Assembly: GCA_934169575.1 (NCBI GenBank)
Contig: CAKPOA010000006.1
Coordinates: 457 to 64,456, forward strand
DNA from: an uncultured Clostridia bacterium
GTDB lineage: Bacteria; Bacillota; Clostridia; TANB77; CAG-508
Length of the DNA: 64,000 nt
Direction: 5' to 3'
The notes under the pieces were generated by a model that searched no databases, was not told where the DNA came from, and saw only the letters and a program-made list of their open reading frames with translations. A program made the translations under genes and the position numbers. This document shows, in pieces, positions 122 through 51,328 of the stretch; positions within the stretch are counted from its first letter, which is position 1; each line of letters starts with the position of its first letter.

Positions 122-3100
122 TTATTCATCAAACAAACTCATTATTTCATCTTTACTAAATTTATTAATAAATGAAGTTTTGGTACTAAGCATATTATCA
201 ACCAAATTAGCCTTTTTTTGTTGCAATTCATAAATTTTTTCTTCAATAGAATTAGAAGTAATCAATTTATAAACTTGAACATTATTTTTTTGACCAATCC
301 TATATGCCCTATCAGTTGCCTGATTTTCTGCAGACTGATTCCACCAAGGATCATAATGAATAACCATATCAGCACCAGTCAAATTAAGACCTGTTCCACC
401 AGCTTTTAAAGAAATCAAAAATACTTTAATATCTGGATTAGTATTAAACTCATCAACAAGAGCTATTCTTTCATCAACTTTTGTATTACCTGTAAGTTTA
501 AAATATTTAATATTCATTGTTCTTAATTGTTTTTCAATAATTTCAAACATTGAAGTATAACCAGAAAACAATAATATTTTATGATTAGACTGAATTGCAT
601 CATCCATTATTTCCATACATTGGCTGAGTTTGCTACTCATTCCTTTATAATCTTTCAAAAATAGTCCTGGGTGGCAACATATTTGTCTAAGTCTTGTAAG
701 ACCTGCAAGTATTTTTATTTGACTTTTTTCAAATCCATTCATATTAATTTCTTCTGCAACTTCTTTTTTTATTTTTGATAGATATGATAAATAAATCAAT
801 TCTTGTTCTTGTTCCATCTGATTATTTACAACTGTTATTGTTTTTTCTGGAAGTTCTGTTAATACATCTGTTTTATTTCTTCTTAATATAAAAGGTTCAA
901 TTAGCATTTTTAATTTTTTCATAGCCTGTTCATCTTGTTCTTTTACAATTGGTGTTTCATAAAGAGACTTAAATTTTTTATATGAAAATAAATAACCCGG
1001 CATAACAAAATCAAATATGGACCATAATTCAGCAAGTGAATTTTCTATAGGTGTTCCTGTTAATGCAAACCTTGTTTCAGCATTAAGTTTTTTTATAGCT
1101 TTTGCATTTTGTGTATTACTATTTTTCATATATTGAGCCTCATCTGCAATTACATATTTAAAACAATAATTTTTTTCATTATATATACTTATATCTCTTT
1201 TTAATAAATCATATGATGTAATTACTATATCATAATTTTCTATATTTGATATAATTTCTTTTCTTTCAACTGCATTTCCTCTTATTACTTGTATCTTTAA
1301 ATCAGGAGCAAATTTTTGTACTTCATTTTTCCAATTTAATGTAAGAGAACTTGGTGAAACAACAATAGTTGTTTTTCTATCTTTACCACTTTTTTGGACA
1401 TAATCTAAAACTATAGAAATAACTTGCAACGTTTTTCCCAGTCCCATATCATCTGCAAGTATTCCACCAAAATGATATGAATCTAAAACTTTAAGCCATC
1501 TAAAACCAATTTTTTGATAATCTCTTAAAATTTTATCCATATTTTCAGGAATAAAAATTTCTTCATTTATATTATCATGTTCCATATTTTCAACAATTTT
1601 TTTAAATTCACTATTTTTTGATACATTACTTATTTCTTGTTTTTTTAATAATTCATTTAAATACAAAGTTCTATTTACAGGTAATCTTATTTCTTCTTTT
1701 TCCAAGTCTGTATAATCTAAATCCATGCCTGTAACTAGTTTATCTAAAAATTCTATATCATGACTTTCTTCTAAATCAATAAAATCGCCATTTTTTAATC
1801 TATAATATTTCTTTTTTAATTTATATTTTTGCATTATATCTTGCAATTCTTGTTTATCAACATTTATTTTACTCAAATCAACAGATAATAAATTGTTTTC
1901 AACTTTTATTCCAATTGTTCCAATTTTTGGTTTTCTAATTTCTTTAGTTTTAAAATTATCTGTTGCTAAAACTTCAAAATTTTTCATATAATATTCAATA
2001 TCACTTGATAAGAAATTATATATATCTTCTTCTTTCGGTAATATAAATCTTTTATTTTCATAATCTGTCATAAAACCTGTTTTCATAAGTATATTTAATT
2101 TTTTATTTTCGTCCATTAAATTTCTTGGAACCTTTATTTGTGCATTTTCATCTAATGGATTAAATTCTTCATCACCATAACAAAATCTAATATCAGAAGT
2201 TATATAATCATTTTTATCATAATCTAAATACATTTTTACACCTAACTTTTTAGGCTTATATTCCTCAACTTCTTTTTCATCAATTCCTTTTAATTTTATG
2301 CAATTATCTACCTGAGGCATCATTACACCATATAATTCTTGTAAATCCTCTTTTTCTAAATCAAGTTCATATACATATTCACTTCTAAAAAGATCTATCA
2401 TTTTTTTTGTAGATTTTTTGAATTTATCACTACATCTATATAAAATATCATCTTCAAAAACATATGTATATTTTTTTCCATCTAAATTATTAATTCCTAA
2501 AACATTTTTATTAGATTTTATTTTATATTTACCAGCTTTTGTTTTTACAAGTTCAAATCTTATATCTGGATCTTCTTCTTTAAATTCTAAAACTGTTATT
2601 TTTCTACCATTTTCAAATGGTATTTTTTTATGTTTTAACATATCAAATATTTCATCAAGTATTGTTGATGTAACAGGTATTGATGTTTGTTTACTTGTTG
2701 ATTCATAATAACTATATCTACTTACATTTTGAGCCATAATAAGCATTTCAGCATATCTTAATATAAATTCTAATACAGGCTGGCTTTCTTCAGTGAAATT
2801 TTCTTTTTTATGTACAAATTCTAATTTATCACCATATTTATAATTTTGTTCATAAATTACATTAGTATAAAATTCTTTCAAATCTTTTAATTTATACATT
2901 CTATTATTACCTATTTTAAATTCCAACCTAAGTTTTCCATCATATTTATCTGCAATTAATCTAGTTTCTATTTTTACTTTATTTTCTAATATTTCATCTT
3001 CCACATTTAACTCATTCATTTGCTCATTATATAATTCATTAACAATTCTTCTAAAATTTGTCATTACATATGGTTTATGTGGTTCTTCATTTTCATCAAT

Positions 3101-3442
3101 AAACACTCCATTATTATTTTCATTATAATTTTTATCCCAATATTTAGGTTGTTTAAACTTCATTAATGTTGCAACAATATGTTTACAAGCACTATATCTT
3201 GAAAAATAATCTTCACATTCACATGACATTACATCTAATTCACCATCATTAATTTCTATTTGTGTAGTATATTGTCCATAATTTCCATCAACAATTCCCG
3301 TTATTGAAAAATTATCTTTATTTTCATATGCTACATTACTTATTTCAACTTTTGCTTTATTTATATATTGTCTTGCTTTTTCAACTCTTTTTTCTCCTGC
3401 ATCTTCACATATTTCTTGAAATATTTGATCATTTATTTGCAT
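122..3442 (-). CDS. SNF2-family helicase with N-terminal SWIM zinc finger (YwqA-like)
   Basis: SWIM-type motif CECEDYFSRYSACKHIVA. SNF2 motifs ILADDMGLGKT, DEAQYMKN, LISLKAGGTGLNL and QATDRAYRIGQ. Start moved from the ORF-track start to ATG 3442 (MQINDQ...), which is preceded by an AGAGGGGAG RBS. Confidence 0.85.
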   Translation of the reverse strand: MQINDQIFQEICEDAGEKRVEKARQYINKAKVEISNVAYENKDNFSITGIVDGNYGQYTTQIEINDGELDVMSCECEDYFSRYSACKHIVATLMKFKQPKYWDKNYNENNNGVFIDENEEPHKPYVMTNFRRIVNELYNEQMNELNVEDEILENKVKIETRLIADKYDGKLRLEFKIGNNRMYKLKDLKEFYTNVIYEQNYKYGDKLEFVHKKENFTEESQPVLEFILRYAEMLIMAQNVSRYSYYESTSKQTSIPVTSTILDEIFDMLKHKKIPFENGRKITVLEFKEEDPDIRFELVKTKAGKYKIKSNKNVLGINNLDGKKYTYVFEDDILYRCSDKFKKSTKKMIDLFRSEYVYELDLEKEDLQELYGVMMPQVDNCIKLKGIDEKEVEEYKPKKLGVKMYLDYDKNDYITSDIRFCYGDEEFNPLDENAQIKVPRNLMDENKKLNILMKTGFMTDYENKRFILPKEEDIYNFLSSDIEYYMKNFEVLATDNFKTKEIRKPKIGTIGIKVENNLLSVDLSKINVDKQELQDIMQKYKLKKKYYRLKNGDFIDLEESHDIEFLDKLVTGMDLDYTDLEKEEIRLPVNRTLYLNELLKKQEISNVSKNSEFKKIVENMEHDNINEEIFIPENMDKILRDYQKIGFRWLKVLDSYHFGGILADDMGLGKTLQVISIVLDYVQKSGKDRKTTIVVSPSSLTLNWKNEVQKFAPDLKIQVIRGNAVERKEIISNIENYDIVITSYDLLKRDISIYNEKNYCFKYVIADEAQYMKNSNTQNAKAIKKLNAETRFALTGTPIENSLAELWSIFDFVMPGYLFSYKKFKSLYETPIVKEQDEQAMKKLKMLIEPFILRRNKTDVLTELPEKTITVVNNQMEQEQELIYLSYLSKIKKEVAEEINMNGFEKSQIKILAGLTRLRQICCHPGLFLKDYKGMSSKLSQCMEIMDDAIQSNHKILLFSGYTSMFEIIEKQLRTMNIKYFKLTGNTKVDERIALVDEFNTNPDIKVFLISLKAGGTGLNLTGADMVIHYDPWWNQSAENQATDRAYRIGQKNNVQVYKLITSNSIEEKIYELQQKKANLVDNMLSTKTSFINKFSKDEIMSLFDE

Positions 3443-3455
3443 TTTTTGCTCCCCT

Positions 3456-4292
3456 CTAGCTTTTTTCTGGCATATAAACAGATTTTGCAACAACATCCAT
3501 TTTCACAACATTCATAGCTGTTAAATTTTCAATTTCTCTAATTGCTTTTTGTTTAAATAATTTTAAACTTTCTACAACATTATATCCATATACAATTTCT
3601 ACTTCCATATATATAATAGGACCTTCAGCAGAATTGTCAACTCTTGTTTTTAAGACTCTATGTATTTCATCTAATTTATTTGCAACATATTCTGCAATTT
3701 GTCTAAACACATTATCTGAAATTGTAAAATTTCCTAAATAACTAAATGTTGGTCTTATTATTGATTTTTCAGATATATATGGTTTTTGTCCATTTCCTTT
3801 TAATTTAAAAATTTGAAGTGGATCTAGCAAATACCCAGAAAAATCTTTTTTTATTTCAAAAGTTGGAACAGGTATAACATGTTTTCCTTCTGTAACTCTT
3901 ATTTTTCTAGCAGTTTCCATTTCTTGTTCTGTCGCTACATCAGTAATATATACAGTCTCAGATATTTTAGGTAATCCAAGATTTTGTGCAATTTTTTCTA
4001 CCATTCCATCTGATGTTCCCAAAATCAAAATACTTCTTGCTTTATATTTGTTTAAAGCTTTTTTTATTGCATTACTTTCACTTTCATTTATAAATAAAGC
4101 TTTTTTTACAGTTTCTATTTTAGTTGATGCCTTTTTTGCAGAGCTTCCTGCAATTACTTGATTATCATATATTAATAATCCATCATCTATTATAAAATGT
4201 ACATTTTTTTCTGCTGCAACCATTTGTGCTCTGTAACTTTTGCCTGTCCCTGATGGACCAACAAAAGCATATACTTTTATTTGACTTAGCAT
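3456..4292 (-). CDS. P-loop NTPase fused to a C-terminal Asp23/Gls24-like domain
   Basis: Walker A GPSGTGKS at residues 12-19. The C-terminal ~100 aa (FTISDNVFRQIAEYVA...IYMEVEIVYGYNVVESLKLFKQKAIREIENLTAMNVVKMDVVAKSV) matches the Asp23 family pattern by eye. TAG stop lies 13 nt before the SNF2 start. Confidence 0.6.
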   Translation of the reverse strand: MLSQIKVYAFVGPSGTGKSYRAQMVAAEKNVHFIIDDGLLIYDNQVIAGSSAKKASTKIETVKKALFINESESNAIKKALNKYKARSILILGTSDGMVEKIAQNLGLPKISETVYITDVATEQEMETARKIRVTEGKHVIPVPTFEIKKDFSGYLLDPLQIFKLKGNGQKPYISEKSIIRPTFSYLGNFTISDNVFRQIAEYVANKLDEIHRVLKTRVDNSAEGPIIYMEVEIVYGYNVVESLKLFKQKAIREIENLTAMNVVKMDVVAKSVYMPEKS

Positions 4293-4349: not shown

Positions 4350-5579
4350 TTAAGCAATCTCTTTTATTTTTATATCTCTAACATGTTCAATTTTTTCCCA
4401 TTTTGTATCTCTTTTAAATAGACACTTGAAATTAATTACAAGCCAAGAGCCGATAAATAATGGATAATATATAAGCCATTTTCTCATAGGTTTTATAGGC
4501 TTTTTCTCTAAATACATTATAAAGACTGCTGTTAATATTGGTAATATAAATGTTGGTATAATATATCTTCCAATATTATATATTAATTCTACTCCAGTCA
4601 TTTCATGAGCAAAATATATTACAAAATTTAATAAAACCAATAAAATTGATGCTACAAACATTGGTATACTTCCGACTATGTATAATAGTCCATCAAAGTT
4701 CATTGCTGTTTTGTTTTTCTTTATTGCTAAAGCAAGGTCTTTTGTATATATTTTCATACATTGAATATGTCCAACTGTCCATCTACTTCTTTGTGACCAA
4801 GATGCTTTAAAATTAACTGGTTGCTCATCATATACTATTGCATCTGTTGCCCAACCTAATTTTCTACCTTTTATTATTCTTTTTAGTGAAAATTCTATAT
4901 CTTCAGTTAATGTTACAGTATCCCATCCTGTATCTTTTACTAAATCAAATTTCACCATAAAACCTGTTCCATTTAACATTGGAGATAATCCAATATTATA
5001 TCTTGCTAAATGATAAAATCTGTGCATTGTCCAATAAAATAATGCATATCCTGCTGTTACCCAACTATCTGTAGGATTTTTTATATCTCTGTAACCTTGA
5101 ACTACTTCTTCACCTTGGCATAATTTTTTATTCATATTTTTTGTAAAGTTTTTATCTACAATATTATCTGCATCAAATATGAAAAACGCATCATAATCAG
5201 CATTTTCTTTTATTTTTTGTTTTAAAAACCAGTCTAATGCATAACCTTTTGTTTTATGTTCTTCATCAAATCTTTCATATACAATTGCTCCATGTTCTTT
5301 CGCAATTTTTGCAGTATTATCTGTACAATTGTCTGCAATTACATATATATCTAATAATTCTTTATCATAATCCTGATTATTTAAACTATCTATTAAATTT
5401 CCTATTACCATTTCTTCATTATGTGCTGGTAATATTGCCATAAATTTATGATTTTTTACTATTTTTAATGGTTTGTCTTTAAATTTTATTAATGAGCATA
5501 AACTAATTGCAAGTTGGTATACCCAAAATACTCCAATTATATATATCAATGCTTGCCTTAATATATAAACATATTCCAT
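4350..5579 (-). CDS. Membrane-embedded family 2 glycosyltransferase (processive synthase type)
   Basis: N-terminal TM, GT2 core (LPAHNEE, DNCTDNT, FDADN), QRSRW (QxxRW) motif, then 3-4 C-terminal TM helices. GGAGAT RBS. TTGCAA-17-TATAAT promoter upstream. Confidence 0.8.
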   Translation of the reverse strand: MEYVYILRQALIYIIGVFWVYQLAISLCSLIKFKDKPLKIVKNHKFMAILPAHNEEMVIGNLIDSLNNQDYDKELLDIYVIADNCTDNTAKIAKEHGAIVYERFDEEHKTKGYALDWFLKQKIKENADYDAFFIFDADNIVDKNFTKNMNKKLCQGEEVVQGYRDIKNPTDSWVTAGYALFYWTMHRFYHLARYNIGLSPMLNGTGFMVKFDLVKDTGWDTVTLTEDIEFSLKRIIKGRKLGWATDAIVYDEQPVNFKASWSQRSRWTVGHIQCMKIYTKDLALAIKKNKTAMNFDGLLYIVGSIPMFVASILLVLLNFVIYFAHEMTGVELIYNIGRYIIPTFILPILTAVFIMYLEKKPIKPMRKWLIYYPLFIGSWLVINFKCLFKRDTKWEKIEHVRDIKIKEIA

Positions 5580-5674
5580 TTTTTATCTCCTTTTCTTAAT
5601 ACATTATATTTAATCACTATTTCTATTATACTATCTTTATGACAATTTTGCAACTTTTTTTCCTCATTTTTCAC

Positions 5675-5705
5675 AAAAAAGTTTGCAAAAAATGCAAACT
5701 TTTTT
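5675..5705 (-). terminator. Intrinsic terminator after the small Cys-rich gene
   Basis: AAAAAAGTTTGCA-AAAAA-TGCAAACTTTTTT hairpin with flanking A/T runs. It could work in both directions. Confidence 0.65.
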
Positions 5706-5717
5706 CTTTTTTAACAA

Positions 5718-5882
5718 TTATTTACAACAATCATAACTTGAGCACATTGATTCATCAGATTTATGAGTATTGCAAGATTTTGTTGGTGTAACATTTATGC
5801 AACATAATTTGCACATATTATTTTGACTATTATGATGTTTACAGCTAGTTACTGTACAATTTATTTGTTGATTTTTTTCCAT
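5718..5882 (-). CDS. Small Cys-rich protein, DUF1540-like (not in supplied ORF track)
   Basis: Hand translation gives MEKNQQINCTVTSCKHHNSQNNMCKLCCINVTPTKSCNTHKSDESMCSSYDCCK (54 aa). The CxVxxCxHH...C...I.V pattern recalls DUF1540. Followed by a clean terminator. Confidence 0.5.
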   Translation of the reverse strand: MEKNQQINCTVTSCKHHNSQNNMCKLCCINVTPTKSCNTHKSDESMCSSYDCCK

Positions 5883-5942
5883 AATATCACAATCCTTTCA
5901 CGAGATTTAATATTAATATGTCACAAAATCAAAAATATATTC

Positions 5943-8453
5943 TTAGTTTTTAAAATTTTCATTATAGATTTTCTTTGCAACATCTTCATCAAAATCAAAA
6001 GCATAAACATATCCTCCTAAGTTTTTAGCCTTTTGTCGTAAATTCTCATTATCTTCATTAACATAAATTTTAGCTTTTCCTTTTCCATTTTTTGCTTCTT
6101 GAATTAAGTTAGAAACAGGAGAATTTCCATCATATGCAATAACAATAGATTTTATTCTTTCAAAAATTTCATAATTAAAACTTTTATATATTCCAGAATC
6201 ATCACTTTCTATAGAAACACACACACCTGTAATATCTGATTGAAGTAATCTTTCTTTTACTTCTTTAGAAATCATTTTAGGAATAATTGCATAAATTTCA
6301 AAATTTTTTCTTGATTTTTTGCAAATTTCTATAATTTCTTTTTCATATCCTTTGATACTATGACCAATAACAAAATATGCTTGTTCTGGGCTTACAAGTT
6401 TTACTAATTTTTCTAATATAATTCTTCCATCTTCTTCAACATGTGTATTTAGCCCCTTAGCATTAAAACTTCCACCAGCAATAATTATAGGTGTTTTGTC
6501 TAAAGGTAAACTATTTACAATTAACTGCCTAAGATATTGTTCAGCTGGAACTTTATCAGTTATTCTCCATTGTATTTTTTGATCTTTATTTTCTTGTTCA
6601 TATTTTTCTTCTAATTCTAAAAGAGCATCTCTTATAGTTCTTCCATTTAAAAATTTTGCAAACTCACAGCTTTTTTCTACAAAATATCCTTTACTGTGTT
6701 TTATTATTTCATCTTCAACATCTCTCATTTTAGCAAATTCTTCATCTTTTACACCTAAAAAATTTTGAAGAGCAAGTTGTTCATCAATAGTATCGATTCC
6801 ATAAAAACCGCAACCATCTGTACCTTGAACACATTTTATTCCATGTCTTAAATATTTTTTTAGAGGATGTTTTGATATCTTACTTAGATTATTTAATCTA
6901 ACATTTGATGTTATTTGGAATTCCATTACAGCACCAGCTTCTTTTATATCTTTAATTAACTGTTCTCCCTCTTTGCTATCTAAATTAGGAGTGTAAAGCC
7001 CATGCCCTATTCTAACACGCGGAAATTCCTGACCTGGTTTTAATGAATTTTTTACACATTTTATTGAATTTGATACATTATCTTTCAAACTATCATTTTC
7101 TCCAGCATGTATTCTTATTGTATATCCTTTATCTTCATTTCCAACATATTGCACAATTTCATTAATTACAGGTTGTAATTCTGAAATATCATTTATCTCT
7201 TCACCAATAAAATCACATCCAACAACATATGGACTTTTTGATACAGTTTTTAATACATTTATATTTTCTCTTAAATAATCTCCATTTGTTATATTATCAT
7301 TTACTATTGTAAGAGGTATTCTTCTTATTGCAACTAAAAATCTAATTTTTACACCTGTTTCCTGCTCAATTTTTGGCATTATTTCATGTACTTCTTCTAA
7401 TAACTCTATTGCTGGTAAACCTTTTTTTGTAAGAGTAGTATCTGCAATTTCAACATATTCTATTCTTTGTTTTTGATATTCTCTTGCTATCCACAATAAT
7501 TTATCTTGTCTTAAATTATTGTCTTTAAAAGGACTATTTTCAGTTAAATCATCTAACATTTTAATTACAATATCTTTTATTTCTTTTACAGGTATATTTC
7601 TTATATTTTCTTTTTCTTGTGTTAAATCTATTTTTTTATCACTTTCTTGTCCTTTTGCAAATATATATCTATATAAATATAACTTTTCTAAATTTGTAAA
7701 TACTGCTTGACCATCTTTTAATATTGCCAAACTTCTTCTTATTTTTTCTAAATTTTCATATGCATTTTCTAAATTGTGTAATATAAAATCTGCAAAATTT
7801 ATAAATGTATTATCATTAATCTTTCTATCTAAATATTTTCCTTCCAATTTTGAGTCTTTAAATTTTTCTTCGACTTTTTTTCTTTGATTATATATAATTT
7901 CTTCTTGATTTTTATTTAATTTTAAATCTAATTTTTTGATATAATATAATGGATATTTTACTTGATGTTTTATTCCAAGTGCTATTAAACAATCAGGTGA
8001 TAAATTGGCATTCATATGTGTATGTAAATCTGTCTTAAATTTTATTTTTTTTAATATATATGATTTTACAATGGTTTTTTCTATAGGCATTTTATAGTCT
8101 TTTGTTTGTGACATCAATGTTTTTGCAATTGCAGGTATTTGTCCATTTAATTGCACACCTTTATCCTTAAAAATATTTGCAATTCTATATCCACCTAATC
8201 TAAATATATATAATTCATTATTTTGTGCATCAATACTTGCTGGTATTTCTCCTGTAATTATTTTCATATCTTTATCATTTTTTACAGTTTCTGTACCACA
8301 TAATTTTGCTAAATTTGTTATCAAATTTCCTGTATTATGGTTTGGTGTTTCTAATATATATGTTAATTCATCTTCTCCTGTTTGATATAAATTTACTACT
8401 ATATCTCTTTCTTTATCTAAATAAAATGTGGTAAAATATTGGTCTTTTTGCAT
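5943..8453 (-). CDS. Multidomain adenosine/AMP-deaminase-superfamily protein with unknown N-domain and SLOG/LOG-like C-domain
   Basis: Metal and catalytic motifs appear in the canonical order: DLHTHMN (HxH), IRIHAGEND, RIGHGLY, QITSNV, QGTDGCG. A long helical insertion follows the HxH motif. The C-terminal ~200 aa alternate beta and alpha elements (PIIIAGGSF, YFVIGHS, EIYAIIP, VIAYDGNSPVSNLIQEA). Start moved to ATG 8453 (MQKDQYF), preceded by an AGGAGA RBS. Confidence 0.7.
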   Translation of the reverse strand: MQKDQYFTTFYLDKERDIVVNLYQTGEDELTYILETPNHNTGNLITNLAKLCGTETVKNDKDMKIITGEIPASIDAQNNELYIFRLGGYRIANIFKDKGVQLNGQIPAIAKTLMSQTKDYKMPIEKTIVKSYILKKIKFKTDLHTHMNANLSPDCLIALGIKHQVKYPLYYIKKLDLKLNKNQEEIIYNQRKKVEEKFKDSKLEGKYLDRKINDNTFINFADFILHNLENAYENLEKIRRSLAILKDGQAVFTNLEKLYLYRYIFAKGQESDKKIDLTQEKENIRNIPVKEIKDIVIKMLDDLTENSPFKDNNLRQDKLLWIAREYQKQRIEYVEIADTTLTKKGLPAIELLEEVHEIMPKIEQETGVKIRFLVAIRRIPLTIVNDNITNGDYLRENINVLKTVSKSPYVVGCDFIGEEINDISELQPVINEIVQYVGNEDKGYTIRIHAGENDSLKDNVSNSIKCVKNSLKPGQEFPRVRIGHGLYTPNLDSKEGEQLIKDIKEAGAVMEFQITSNVRLNNLSKISKHPLKKYLRHGIKCVQGTDGCGFYGIDTIDEQLALQNFLGVKDEEFAKMRDVEDEIIKHSKGYFVEKSCEFAKFLNGRTIRDALLELEEKYEQENKDQKIQWRITDKVPAEQYLRQLIVNSLPLDKTPIIIAGGSFNAKGLNTHVEEDGRIILEKLVKLVSPEQAYFVIGHSIKGYEKEIIEICKKSRKNFEIYAIIPKMISKEVKERLLQSDITGVCVSIESDDSGIYKSFNYEIFERIKSIVIAYDGNSPVSNLIQEAKNGKGKAKIYVNEDNENLRQKAKNLGGYVYAFDFDEDVAKKIYNENFKN

Positions 8454-8589
8454 ATTCTTCTCTCCTTTCCAAATAATTAAATTACGTAGATTTAATTTTA
8501 TCACATTTTTTGTTAAATGTCCAATTTTTCAGAATGCTTTTTAATTATGCTAAGTATAGGTACAAGTCAGCCATTTTTAATTTATAACC

Positions 8590-8740
8590 CAAATATGTGT
8601 ATAGAATTATTTTTTAATACTGCGCAAGCGACCAAACGAACGTAAGTGAGTGCGATTGGAGCAATTTTCATTATACTAATTTTTTAATATGGAAATTGCG
8701 ACTGCAAAATATGTAAAAATAATTCTATACACATATTTTG
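8590..8740 (+). repeat. Copy 1 of a dispersed structured repeat (GC-rich core inside long AT-rich inverted arms)
   Basis: The core CTGCGCAAGCGACCAAACGA...GTGCGATTGGAGCAATTTTCAT...ATGGAAATTGCGACTGCAA is shared with three other loci. The 24-bp arms AAATATGTGTATAGAATTATTTTT and their complement are perfect. Confidence 0.85.
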
Positions 8741-8767
8741 TTCTAAATCACTTTAATAACTAAATAT

Positions 8768-8797
8768 ACTTGAACTTCTACATATAGAAGTTCAAGT
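8768..8797 (-). terminator. Terminator hairpin after pilC
   Basis: ACTTGAACTTCTA-CATA-TAGAAGTTCAAGT, a perfect 13-bp stem 10 nt downstream of the pilC stop. The T-run is weak. Confidence 0.5.
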
Positions 8798-8806
8798 AAT
8801 AAGTTA

Positions 8807-10177
8807 TTATGACCCTGATGGTAAATATAAATCAAACAAGAAGTTACCGAAATATAGTTGAATCATTGGAACAAGTACAACAATTACAAATATAATCAAT
8901 ACTATACCAACAATTGCGTAAAGCACTTGAGGTAAAACTTTTGTAATAGTTTCAATAGTATTATTAATATCAAATTCCATGTAATCAACCAATTTATCCA
9001 TCATTTCTGGTAAATCAGTTTGCATACCTATTTTAAGCATTTCAATACACATAGGTGATGCCAAACCTGAAGTTTCAAAAGGTTCAATCCATTGTTCACC
9101 AATTAAAACATTGTTTATGGCTTTTTCAATAATTGAAAGCATAACATAATTATTTACAACATTTTTACTAATATCTAAAGCCTCTTGAACCCTCATACCA
9201 TTTCTTAAATTAAGTAACAGTGCTTTCATCAATCTTGAAAAATCGATTGAGAAAATAAGTTTTCCAAATAAAGGCATTGTATATTTAAAATAATGATATT
9301 TGTATTTACCTTTTGGAGTTTGAATATAAAGTACAATTGCAGCAATAATTGCTACTAATATTGCTACTGGAATTGGCCAGTAAGTAATTATCGCATTTAT
9401 AACATCTTGGAAAACAAGTGTTGCTTTTGGTATAACTTTATCTGTTTGAGCTCCTAACTCTTCAATTACAGATTCTACTTCTGGAAGAGCATATAATCCA
9501 CCTACAAAAAGCATAATTATTAAAAGTACAAATTGTAATAAATTAGGTATTAATATATTTCTTAATTTTTTACTTAAAAGTGTATTACTATCTAAATATT
9601 CAACTGCTTGTTTTAGTGAATTTTCAAGTGAACCTGAAAGTTCTCCAACTCTTATCATATTAACATATATATATGGAAATACTTCTGGATAATATTCCAT
9701 TGTTTTATACATATAATCTCCAGATTCAACACCTGCTAAAATATCTTCTAATATTCCAACTAAAACCATATTTTCAGTTCCTTCAATTATTGTTGATAAA
9801 GCATGAACATTATTAAAGTTTGCCTTTTTAAGTAAATAGAAATTTTGAGTAAATACAACTAAATCTCTTTGAGATACTTTTGTAGAAAAAGATGTTGAAC
9901 CCAAATATTCTTTCACATTAGAAAATGTAGTATTTTTTCTTTCTGCTCTTTGATTTATTTGTGTTGTATTTAATTGTTTTATTAATTCTTGTGCATTTGT
10001 AGCATTTCTTTTTTTCTTTTTAGCCGTTGTTGTTCTTCTCATTACTGTTGAAATATCTATTGGTGATAAATCATTTGACTTCAACTTTCTAAATAAAGCA
10101 AGTTTACTTGTCTCTTCAACCCTATTTCTAACAATTTTCCCATATTTATCAACAGCTCTATAAGTATATGTTGGCAT
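8807..10177 (-). CDS. pilC: Type IV pilus platform protein PilC (GspF family)
   Basis: Duplicated GspF-type repeats with TM segments. Last gene of the pilB-pilT-pilC block. AGGAGG RBS. Confidence 0.85.
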   Translation of the reverse strand: MPTYTYRAVDKYGKIVRNRVEETSKLALFRKLKSNDLSPIDISTVMRRTTTAKKKKRNATNAQELIKQLNTTQINQRAERKNTTFSNVKEYLGSTSFSTKVSQRDLVVFTQNFYLLKKANFNNVHALSTIIEGTENMVLVGILEDILAGVESGDYMYKTMEYYPEVFPYIYVNMIRVGELSGSLENSLKQAVEYLDSNTLLSKKLRNILIPNLLQFVLLIIMLFVGGLYALPEVESVIEELGAQTDKVIPKATLVFQDVINAIITYWPIPVAILVAIIAAIVLYIQTPKGKYKYHYFKYTMPLFGKLIFSIDFSRLMKALLLNLRNGMRVQEALDISKNVVNNYVMLSIIEKAINNVLIGEQWIEPFETSGLASPMCIEMLKIGMQTDLPEMMDKLVDYMEFDINNTIETITKVLPQVLYAIVGIVLIIFVIVVLVPMIQLYFGNFLFDLYLPSGS

Positions 10178-25329: not shown

Positions 25330-25467
25330 TATATATTGTATTATTTTATGAATACCGCGTAAGCGACCAAACGAGCATAGCGAGTGCGATTGGAGCAATT
25401 TTCATTATATTGATTTTTGAAAAGAAAATTGCGACTGCAAGGTATGAAAAAAATAATACAATATATA
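25330..25467 (+). repeat. Copy 2 of the dispersed structured repeat, inside the spoVAC-spoVAD spacer
   Basis: Core CGCGTAAGCGACCAAACGAGCATAGCGAGTGCGATTGGAGCAATTTTC...GAAAATTGCGACTGCAAGGTAT. Arms TATATATTGTATTATTTT and their complement. Confidence 0.85.
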
Positions 25468-25507
25468 AATTAAATTTATAATCAATTTATATGAAAGGAA
25501 TTGAAAA

Positions 25508-46594: not shown

Positions 46595-46744
46595 TTAGGT
46601 ATTTTCATTGAATCATTTTTTTAATACTGCGCAAGCGACCAAACGAGCACAGCGAGTGCGATTGGAGCAATTTTCATTTATTTAATCTTAGATATGGAAA
46701 TTGCAACTGCAAAGTATTAAAAATAATTCAATGAAAATACCTAA
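46595..46744 (+). repeat. Copy 3 of the dispersed structured repeat
   Basis: Best-preserved copy. The arms TTAGGTATTTTCATTGAATCATTTTT...AATACT pair with AGTATTAAAAATAATTCAATGAAAATACCTAA. The core is identical in layout to the other copies. Confidence 0.9.
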
Positions 46745-51180: not shown

Positions 51181-51328
51181 GATATTTATATTGTATTATT
51201 TTTTTCATACTTTGCAGTCGCAATTTCCATATTTAAAAATTAATTAAATGAAAATTGCTCCAATCGCACTCGCTTTGCTCGTTTGATCGCTTACGCAGTA
51301 TTTAAAAAATAATACAATATAAATATTC
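51181..51328 (-). repeat. Copy 4 of the dispersed structured repeat (inverted orientation)
   Basis: The reverse complement reads AATACTGCGTAAGCGATCAAACGAGCAAAGCGAGTGCGATTGGAGCAATTTTCAT...ATGGAAATTGCGACTGCAAAGTAT. The 23-bp arms ATATTTATATTGTATTATTTTTT and their complement are perfect. Confidence 0.85.

Follow-up and report, generated by a model that had tools for sequence, protein, structure and literature searches.

A three-domain protein family of gut Clostridia combining an adenosine deaminase fold with a SLOG-like C-terminal domain

The window considered here, a stretch of 64,000 nucleotides from an uncultured Clostridia bacterium (GenBank assembly GCA_934169575.1, contig CAKPOA010000006.1), encodes on its minus strand an 836-amino-acid protein with three domains: an N-terminal domain, an adenosine deaminase (ADA) fold with extra sequence, and a C-terminal domain of SLOG-like fold. 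This architecture is shown by sequence profiles, structure predictions and invariant alignment columns, and the protein belongs to a well-defined, abundant, uncharacterised family. It is probably a housekeeping enzyme rather than a defence effector. A more tentative assignment, held at somewhat less than even likelihood, is that of a bifunctional enzyme which acts in purine nucleotide turnover in a lineage of low-GC gut Clostridia; relatives occur in other Clostridia as well. A first-pass annotation, made from the sequence alone, had described the protein as an orphan and a candidate stand-alone defence effector; the data below contradict the former description and make the latter unlikely.

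The open reading frame (ORF) at 5943-8453 is uninterrupted, as annotated before; the strand had not been given. In its longest form it starts from a GTG codon at 8504 and encodes 853 amino acids. The 836-amino-acid form was chosen because the candidate ribosome-binding site GGAAAGGAGAG is correctly spaced before the ATG codon at 8453. Public data contain a protein (P0001) that is 100% identical to the product of this form. All motifs listed in the first-pass annotation are present in the translation in the order given there: DLHTHMN (starting at residue 142), IRIHAGEND (446), RIGHGLY (481), QITSNV (513) and QGTDGCG (543), and, in the C-terminal part, PIIIAGGSF (655), YFVIGHS (693) and VIAYDGNSPVSNLIQEA (771).

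The central domain matches the Pfam family PF00962 with E=2.7e-20 and 73.2 bits (cut-off 27), the best stretch covering residues 323-576, and TIGR01430 with E=2e-16. A profile of 21 family members retrieves classical ADAs from the PDB at 6e-11 to 4e-6. The best sequence matches are ADAs of Plasmodium (2pgf/3ewc/6ii7) and Vibrio/Salmonella (6n91/6n9m); the weak ones include the ADA-like 8qch. Residues H144, H146, H449, E452, H484 and D546 do not vary among 21 sequences, the most distant of which has 52% identity, and are kept in a 48%-identical homologue. The metal-binding and catalytic residues of mouse ADA are H15/H17/H214/E217/H238/D295, with D296 contacting purine N7. By these signatures the central module is shown to be a candidate metal-dependent adenine-ring deaminase barrel with all catalytic residues intact, and the deaminase fold assigned to it earlier is upheld.

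The protein shares with classical ADA (Add, PF00962, COG1816) the TIM-barrel fold and the HxH, HAGE and GHG motifs and metal-binding Asp in the same order. However, it is 2.5 times longer, with additional N-terminal beta-rich and C-terminal SLOG domains, and differs within the barrel by about 105-120 extra residues between HxH and HAGE, by Gly in place of the second Asp of TDD, and by Asn in place of the Asp that comes after HxH. Its score against the NCBIfam ADA equivalogs (TIGR01430 / NF0068xx) is far under the cut-off, 60 bits versus 216.55. Judged by sequence, it is in the ADA superfamily, yet it is no Add equivalog. In the alignment with PDB ADAs, 'qGtdGcGfyG' is set against 'vnsdDpGmfl', with G547 opposite the second Asp of the SDD of Plasmodium ADA. 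The TDG triplet is also present in the 48%-identical relative. Its place at the position of the N7 contact suggests that the substrate is held differently than in classical ADA. The second invariant departure is HTHMNA in place of HxHLDG. The distance from HxH to HAGE is 303 residues versus 197 in mouse ADA. This spacing and the point at which the Pfam match resumes define the above surplus, which is well below the roughly 250 residues proposed earlier. The extra sequence holds an invariant block, K246-DGQAVFTNLEK-257 / Y261-R262. This block (DGQAVFTNLEK..Y.YRY) looks like the FLxKF lid motif of ADA.

An AlphaFold2 (AF2) model of the C-terminal domain, built from a 21-sequence alignment, has a predicted local distance difference test (pLDDT) score of 83, a predicted template-modelling (pTM) score of 0.77 and six beta-alpha units. 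Nearly all Foldseek matches of this model in the PDB are members of the SLOG superfamily (probability 1.0, E from 6e-5 to 4e-3). They include MHR1/2 of TRPM8/2/3/4, LOG proteins (1ydh, 5ajt, 5its, 5zbl, 1t35, 2a33, 7w2i) from plants, fungi and bacteria, B. subtilis YvdD, the molybdenum cofactor (MoCo) carrier of Chlamydomonas (2iz5), and DprA (4ljr, 5mll). As the matches are almost exclusively SLOG members, the SLOG assignment, which had been proposed from the sequence, is supported at the level of the fold. Profile searches with the sequence of the domain gave no match in Pfam, NCBIfam or PDB. Thus, by its predicted fold, the domain is a SLOG member outside every described SLOG sequence family.

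The conserved motifs of the predicted pocket are A659-G-G-S-F-N664, G697 (with H698 nearly invariant), Y703-E704 and P725, followed by G754-IYKSFNYE-762, F764-E765-R766, G776-N-S-P779, N782-L783 and Q785-EAKNGK-791. In the model, the Gly loop AGGSFN follows strand 1, G...GYE follows strand 2 and the Pro follows strand 3; next come a helix with E-R-R and then a strand, a loop and a helix ending in the invariant Q-E. This order of elements is the same as in the LOG domain of E. coli PpnN (WGGHSIN / TGCGPGAME / EKR / FPGGVGTAEE). R766 and E786 are invariant and retained in the 48%-identical relative (FKRR...NLIQEAKN), whereas H698 and E765 are lost there. LOG and PpnN phosphoribohydrolases (1ydh, 2a33, 5its, 5zbl, 1t35, 6gfl) have the same Rossmannoid fold (E from 8e-5 to 4e-3, template-modelling (TM) score up to 0.65 when normalized by target length), and in PpnN, as here, a LOG-like domain is fused to other domains. 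In LOG the motif PGGxGTxxE binds phosphate and carries the catalytic Glu, and catalysis by CgLOG involves Arg99 and Glu122 (PMC4979012).

The AF2 model of the N-terminal domain is of moderate confidence (pLDDT 78) and has seven strands and three helices. Foldseek found no match to it in PDB or BFVD (best E 0.2 and 0.14, respectively, TM at most 0.37), and no sequence match was found in Pfam, NCBIfam or PDB. The alignment profiles of the N- and C-terminal domains matched PDB sequences at chance level (IMPDH 0.09, uL22 0.42), and the isolated N-terminal, insertion and C-terminal segments gave nothing credible in Pfam/NCBIfam (Spc29 0.013, DUF7596 0.013, LysJ 0.16). The fold predicted by the model is thus apparently new, in agreement with the earlier remark that this module resembles nothing recognisable. 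The invariant polar residues include D13, E15, D17, T36-P37-H39, N43, N47, K64 and Q116-T117-K118. Their number favours ligand binding or catalysis over the role of a passive spacer. A profile of the domain compared with 1.84 billion cluster representatives matched 185 proteins, three of them full-length (836, 831 and 834 amino acids). Eight of the shorter ones were read and turned out to be family members that were fragmentary, frameshifted or chimeric, each with the N-terminal domain followed by the start of the deaminase. The remaining short matches, judged by length and match position, are as expected of N-terminal fragments of the same gene. Since this search found only family members, the domain is exclusive to the deaminase-SLOG architecture.

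The first homologue search gave more than 120 clusters (90%) with at least 68% identity, all of 817-853 amino acids. One full-length copy each, 54-66% identical, was found in 44 GTDB species (one genome per species). Thus the protein is no orphan but has hundreds of full-length homologues. All 44 are gut-derived 'Clostridia' metagenome-assembled genomes from human, chicken, rabbit, goat and sheep; the carriers include Clostridium sp. CAG:575, CAG:343 and CAG:492 and Candidatus Scatovivens. A more divergent branch occurs in organisms labelled Lachnospiraceae, Butyrivibrio or Eubacterium and includes the full-length 48%-identical copy, which resides on a 55%-GC contig. Fragments from the divergent clade are named only 'adenosine deaminase, partial', and the sources consulted give the family no other name. 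The pairwise identities of the protein correlate with those of the essential GTPase EngA (r=0.96, 55 pairs) and with those of dCMP deaminase (r=0.83), and its conservation is equal to or above that of the neighbouring HtrA, M23 and membrane proteins. The pilus operon that lies upstream in the window is retained in a relative with 84% identity, where the products of the flanking genes are 72-91% identical. No family member was found in an IMG/VR scan or by tblastn in 50,697 phage records and 72,556 plasmids; the phage and plasmid collections gave weak matches to ordinary add genes only. Inheritance looks vertical, chromosomal and core-like.

Short 'proteins' of the family were considered as alternative architectures and rejected, as they are fragments from contig ends, gene calls broken by frameshifts, or chimeras. 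One homologue (58% identity; L054:8001-10503), on a contig of 129 kb with 26% GC, appears as three separate gene calls owing to at least one frameshift near 9270, and the genes neighbouring the homologue in contigs of this kind are likewise fragmented. Such calls explain many short 'adenosine deaminase, partial' entries as artefacts of assembly or gene calling, not truncated architectures. The 48%-identical homologue (L052:7944-10460; ENA ERZ27234649, contig k141_229653, 149 kb, 55% GC) is encoded in one frame that contains in-frame TAG codons. The same gene with TAG codons is present in L053 (ERZ27234650) and is thus reproduced in two assemblies. At five of the TAG codons (E15, E335, E365, E419 and E511 of the query) 48-50 of 50 family sequences have Glu, and TAG codons also interrupt the core genes beside this homologue (ffh, trmD, ABC transporters). 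The pattern may reflect either TAG being read as Glu or a systematic GAG-to-TAG artefact. To our knowledge, a bacterial reading of TAG as Glu has not been described.

The gene neighbourhoods were scanned over 148 proteins, two genes on each side in the 44 species. The commonest Pfam families are the CDA-fold deaminase and Peptidase M23 (8 proteins each), followed by PDZ (6, in HtrA-type proteases, 4 of them with Trypsin_2), RelA_SpoT (5), HD (5) and DHH (3). A nucleotide-metabolism gene lies directly upstream and is co-oriented in 16 of the 44 species. It encodes a TadA/GuaD-like CDA-fold nucleoside/base deaminase in six species, a YjbM-type alarmone synthetase and/or HD hydrolase in seven, and an NrnA-like DHH phosphoesterase in three. 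The YjbM-type small alarmone synthetase and/or a 263-residue HD protein mark one sub-clade (L015:8262-9808; equivalents in L016, L018, L022, L025, L026, L043), and this arrangement may be an operon that ties the protein to (p)ppGpp metabolism. A relative with 78% identity (L048:5948-9896) has the gene right after the pyrimidine biosynthesis genes pyrC-pyrF-pyrK-pyrD, in the same orientation, and just upstream of these pyr genes is a ParE/Phd toxin-antitoxin pair. Other contexts are ribosomal protein genes, pgi, holB and a DHH protein; serS with a P-type ATPase; and ffh-rpsP-trmD. None of the neighbours of the gene in the window is conserved beside the 44 homologues. The neighbourhoods are of housekeeping type. 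Thus the prospect of a housekeeping gene across the Clostridia, which the first-pass annotation had raised as an alternative to its own proposal, is largely in line with the inheritance and the contexts; strict synteny is not conserved.

A mechanism may be proposed for the bifunctional purine-nucleotide enzyme. The LOG-like domain would bind a purine nucleoside 5'-monophosphate (AMP or N6-modified AMP) via the Gly-rich loops AGGSFN and DGNSP and would cut its N-glycosidic bond using R766 and E786, freeing ribose-5-phosphate and the base. The deaminase barrel would then turn an adenine-type base into hypoxanthine and ammonia, or, in the alternative order, would act first and on the nucleotide. 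The hypoxanthine would be open to salvage into IMP and GMP. For the N-terminal domain a part in regulation, ligand binding or oligomerisation is assumed. A role in purine salvage is what we infer from this scheme. If it is true, the family provides an undescribed route in one polypeptide from adenine nucleotides to hypoxanthine and ribose-5-phosphate and, as its carriers are abundant, uncultured gut Clostridia, is relevant to the purine economy of the gut. The family also adds a new SLOG sequence family and a domain of apparently new fold, and it is a caution that large insertion-bearing fusions of the ADA fold with a Rossmannoid need not be defence effectors.

Several observations weigh against this scheme. 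Both the substrates and the sequence in which the reactions would occur are conjectural. Instead of the strict LOG motif PGGxGTxxE the domain has DGNSPVSNLxQE, and a comparison of the query and of 21 C-terminal domains with Pfam at E<=10 retrieved no SLOG or LOG (PF03641) family; the 21 gave scattered noise, namely Tox-REase-5 in nine members at 0.05 or above and ThsA_Macro in one at 0.083. R766 and E786 would be the positional counterparts of LOG Arg99 and Glu122 by motif order and predicted topology only. The alignment of the C-terminal profile to the PpnN LOG domain by hhalign (probability 0.2%) and a global pairwise alignment to PpnN (z=0.1 versus shuffles) are uninformative, and a search of all fetched loci (875 kb) with the PpnN LOG domain by tblastn found no canonical LOG that could serve as a bridge. 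The fold cannot separate a catalytic from a sensor SLOG, since TRPM MHR1/2 and LOG score alike. Finally, gene order is not conserved beyond close relatives and so does not prove a purine pathway at the level of operons.

The similarity to TRPM MHR1/2, an LSDAT-type SLOG whose representative TRPM8 9b6e is the best Foldseek match (6.3e-5), introduces another candidate function, since this fold can be a pure sensor of ADP-ribose-type ligands. The protein may be an allosteric housekeeping deaminase, in which a non-catalytic SLOG domain, and perhaps the N-terminal domain, senses a nucleotide and switches the barrel for purine balance or starvation. This is the main rival of the bifunctional enzyme and is held to be somewhat less likely. 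Candidate ligands are adenine or guanine nucleotides, (p)ppGpp, ADP-ribose and pAp. Regulation of this kind by nucleotides is known from eukaryotic AMP deaminase. The SLOG fold fits the ligand-binding TRPM domains as well as LOG enzymes, the canonical LOG catalytic motif is not kept, and the alarmone synthetase and/or HD hydrolase is directly upstream and co-oriented in seven species. PpnN is reported to be a LOG-domain protein regulated by (p)ppGpp (10.1101/2025.04.13.648610). The vertical, core-like inheritance fits an allosteric and a bifunctional enzyme equally well. However, the extreme invariance of the Arg/Glu pair at the LOG-catalytic-like positions would be needless in a sensor, and the alarmone-synthetase adjacency is confined to one sub-clade. 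TRPM and ThsA-type SLOG sensors, found in eukaryotic channels or Thoeris, have no sequence-level relationship to the family. An unlikely variant is that the barrel acts on modified purines or related amino-heterocycles, e.g. N6-methyl- or N6-isopentenyl-adenine nucleotides from RNA turnover, or a cofactor intermediate, in detoxification or recycling. N6-methyl-AMP deaminases of the ADAL type are known. The invariant TDG and HTHMNA in place of HxHLDG indicate a remodelled substrate pocket, the score is low against the ADA equivalog cut-off (60 bits versus 216), and the ADA-like 8qch is among the weak PDB matches. The physiological substrates of LOG are N6-substituted AMPs (PMC4979012). On the other hand, the same residue changes are equally compatible with nucleotide (ATP or AMP) substrates, and the variant is a form of the bifunctional proposal rather than an exclusive alternative to it.

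The proposal of the first-pass annotation was a self-contained anti-phage effector, in which the SLOG and/or N-terminal domain senses a nucleotide signal of infection and triggers ATP/dATP deamination and growth arrest. Indeed, RdrB (PMC9994260) and Cad1 (PMC11645235) are known examples of defence effectors built on an ADA fold with large additions, and SLOG domains have been proposed as sensors in conflict systems (PMC6459960). The only PADLOC match of the protein is the CARF_ADA model (1.4e-8). However, this match is limited to the deaminase core (residues 315-550 against profile positions 332-544). No CARF domain is present, and the beta-rich model of the N-terminal domain matches no CARF structure. 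The family profile matches no RdrB or Cad1 entry of the PDB at E<=1. In Cad1/CAAD (PMC11645235, PMC12669630, PMC12993439) an ADA-fold domain is likewise combined with a Rossmann-like nucleotide-binding domain, but that domain is an N-terminal CARF and not a C-terminal SLOG, and the family differs also in having no CRISPR-Cas context and in its vertical inheritance. RdrB of RADAR is, similarly, a large ADA-fold protein (about 800-900 residues) with additions to the barrel (PMC9994260); an RdrA AAA+ partner is missing both from the window and from the surroundings of every homologue, and the distribution of the family is unlike that of a mobile defence gene.

The surroundings of the gene point in the same direction. 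No RdrA, CRISPR, cas or CBASS genes were seen among its neighbours in the window, in agreement with the first-pass annotation, and PADLOC applied to the protein, the window neighbours and the 148 homologue neighbours gave no RdrA or RdrB match. No coherent defence system recurs in the latter. The only Cas-model matches among them are to the Cas3 models PDLC00940 (5 members) and PDLC01254 (2 members); in the one neighbour checked, the recurrent upstream HD protein matches cas3_HD through its generic HD domain. The PADLOC 'dCTPase' model matches eight neighbours, the same count as the Pfam CDA-fold family. The recurring PADLOC matches thus mirror generic domains, as the same domains are found by Pfam/NCBIfam where compared. 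Together with the co-divergence with EngA, the single copy per genome, the housekeeping surroundings, the normal GC content and the absence from the viral, phage and plasmid sets, this makes an anti-phage effector very unlikely. It is quite unlikely, too, that the protein is a constitutive, lineage-fixed, signal-gated purine deaminase, a 'domesticated' relative of Cad1/RdrB in which the N-terminal and SLOG domains would be dual sensors (of alarmones or ADP-ribose-type ligands) that switch an ATP/AMP-directed barrel in stress growth control or immunity. The housekeeping enzyme acting in purine nucleotide turnover remains the preferred candidate. Whichever function is considered, no description of an ADA-SLOG fusion was found in the literature, as the first-pass annotation had supposed for this layout.

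One neighbour in the window might be taken as an argument for defence. A protein of 1124 amino acids with SNF2_assoc and SNF2 helicase domains is encoded 2.4 kb downstream (122-3496, minus strand) and matches the helicase-core models DpdE and ZorD of PADLOC (4.8e-147). However, its SNF2_assoc domain is an ordinary one, no other Dpd or Zorya components were seen near it, and the gene is not kept beside the homologues. It is probably an ordinary bacterial SNF2 protein. An ORF of 278 amino acids with weak AAA/ABC-like similarity (3456-4292, minus strand) overlaps the SNF2 gene by 41 nucleotides and has no PADLOC match.

Table 1. Features of the deaminase-SLOG gene and its immediate locus (positions in the window)
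Feature	Positions	Strand	Basis
Whole gene, three-domain protein of 836 amino acids	5943..8453	minus	ATG at 8453, stop at 5945-5943; ORF list and translation
N-terminal family-specific beta-rich domain, residues 1-137	8043..8453	minus	AF2 model and invariant columns
ADA-type amidohydrolase TIM barrel, residues 138-600	6654..8042	minus	Pfam PF00962, TIGR01430, PDB profile
HxH metal-binding motif, H144-T-H146	8016..8024	minus	Invariant in 21 sequences to 52% identity
Extra sequence inside the deaminase domain, residues ~170-322	7488..7946	minus	Pfam match resumes at residue 323 = profile position 78; motif spacing
HAGE motif, candidate metal ligand H449 and catalytic E452	7098..7109	minus	Aligned to HAGE of Plasmodium ADA; invariant
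GHG motif, H484	6999..7007	minus	Invariant; aligned to PDB ADAs
T-D546-G547	6813..6821	minus	Metal-binding Asp kept; second Asp of TDD(P) replaced by invariant Gly
Helical linker, residues 601-645	6519..6653	minus	Lowest conservation in the protein (0.61); AF2 places a helix at model residues 8-22, followed by a part of low confidence
C-terminal SLOG-fold Rossmannoid, residues 646-836	5946..6518	minus	AF2, Foldseek and invariant columns
Candidate ribosome-binding site GGAAAGGAGAG	8460..8470	minus	6 nucleotides 5' of the ATG; read from the sequence
Promoter-like site, TGGACA-17-TAAAAT with TG extension	8495..8523	minus	Consensus match, best in the region
Terminator-like hairpin closing the upstream type IV pilus operon	8767..8798	minus	Strong hairpin; sets the operon apart from the gene
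Downstream DUF1540 ORF, 54 amino acids	5718..5882	minus	Pfam PF07561, 2.7e-7; 61-nucleotide gap to the gene

The upstream type IV pilus operon contains genes for a prepilin peptidase, two T2SSE ATPases and T2SSF. The promoter-like site downstream of it is weak evidence, as shuffled sequences are expected to contain just as many such sites as this region does. No riboswitch, leader or other family was found upstream of the gene in an Rfam scan of positions 5400-9000 at E<=1. The GC content of the gene is the same as that of its flanks. The sole terminator-like hairpin 3' of the gene (5675-5705) follows the DUF1540 ORF, and no terminator was found in the gap between the two. Thus the DUF1540 ORF is possibly co-transcribed with the deaminase-SLOG gene; it is not kept beside the homologues. 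The gene had been annotated as monocistronic, with its own ribosome-binding site, a structured repeat upstream and a DUF1540 gene with a terminator downstream. These elements are all present, but monocistronic transcription is not established, as there is no terminator before DUF1540.

The upstream repeat is an intergenic element of about 115-150 nucleotides. The copy at 8591-8738 has 36-nucleotide inverted arms (86% complementary) and a GC-richer core. No copy was found in the loci of other species. Three further copies are present in the window (25334-25489, 46607-46732 and 51182-51327), with 80-88% identity, and the element looks like a genome-specific repeat similar to miniature inverted-repeat transposable elements (MITE) or repetitive extragenic palindromic (REP) sequences.

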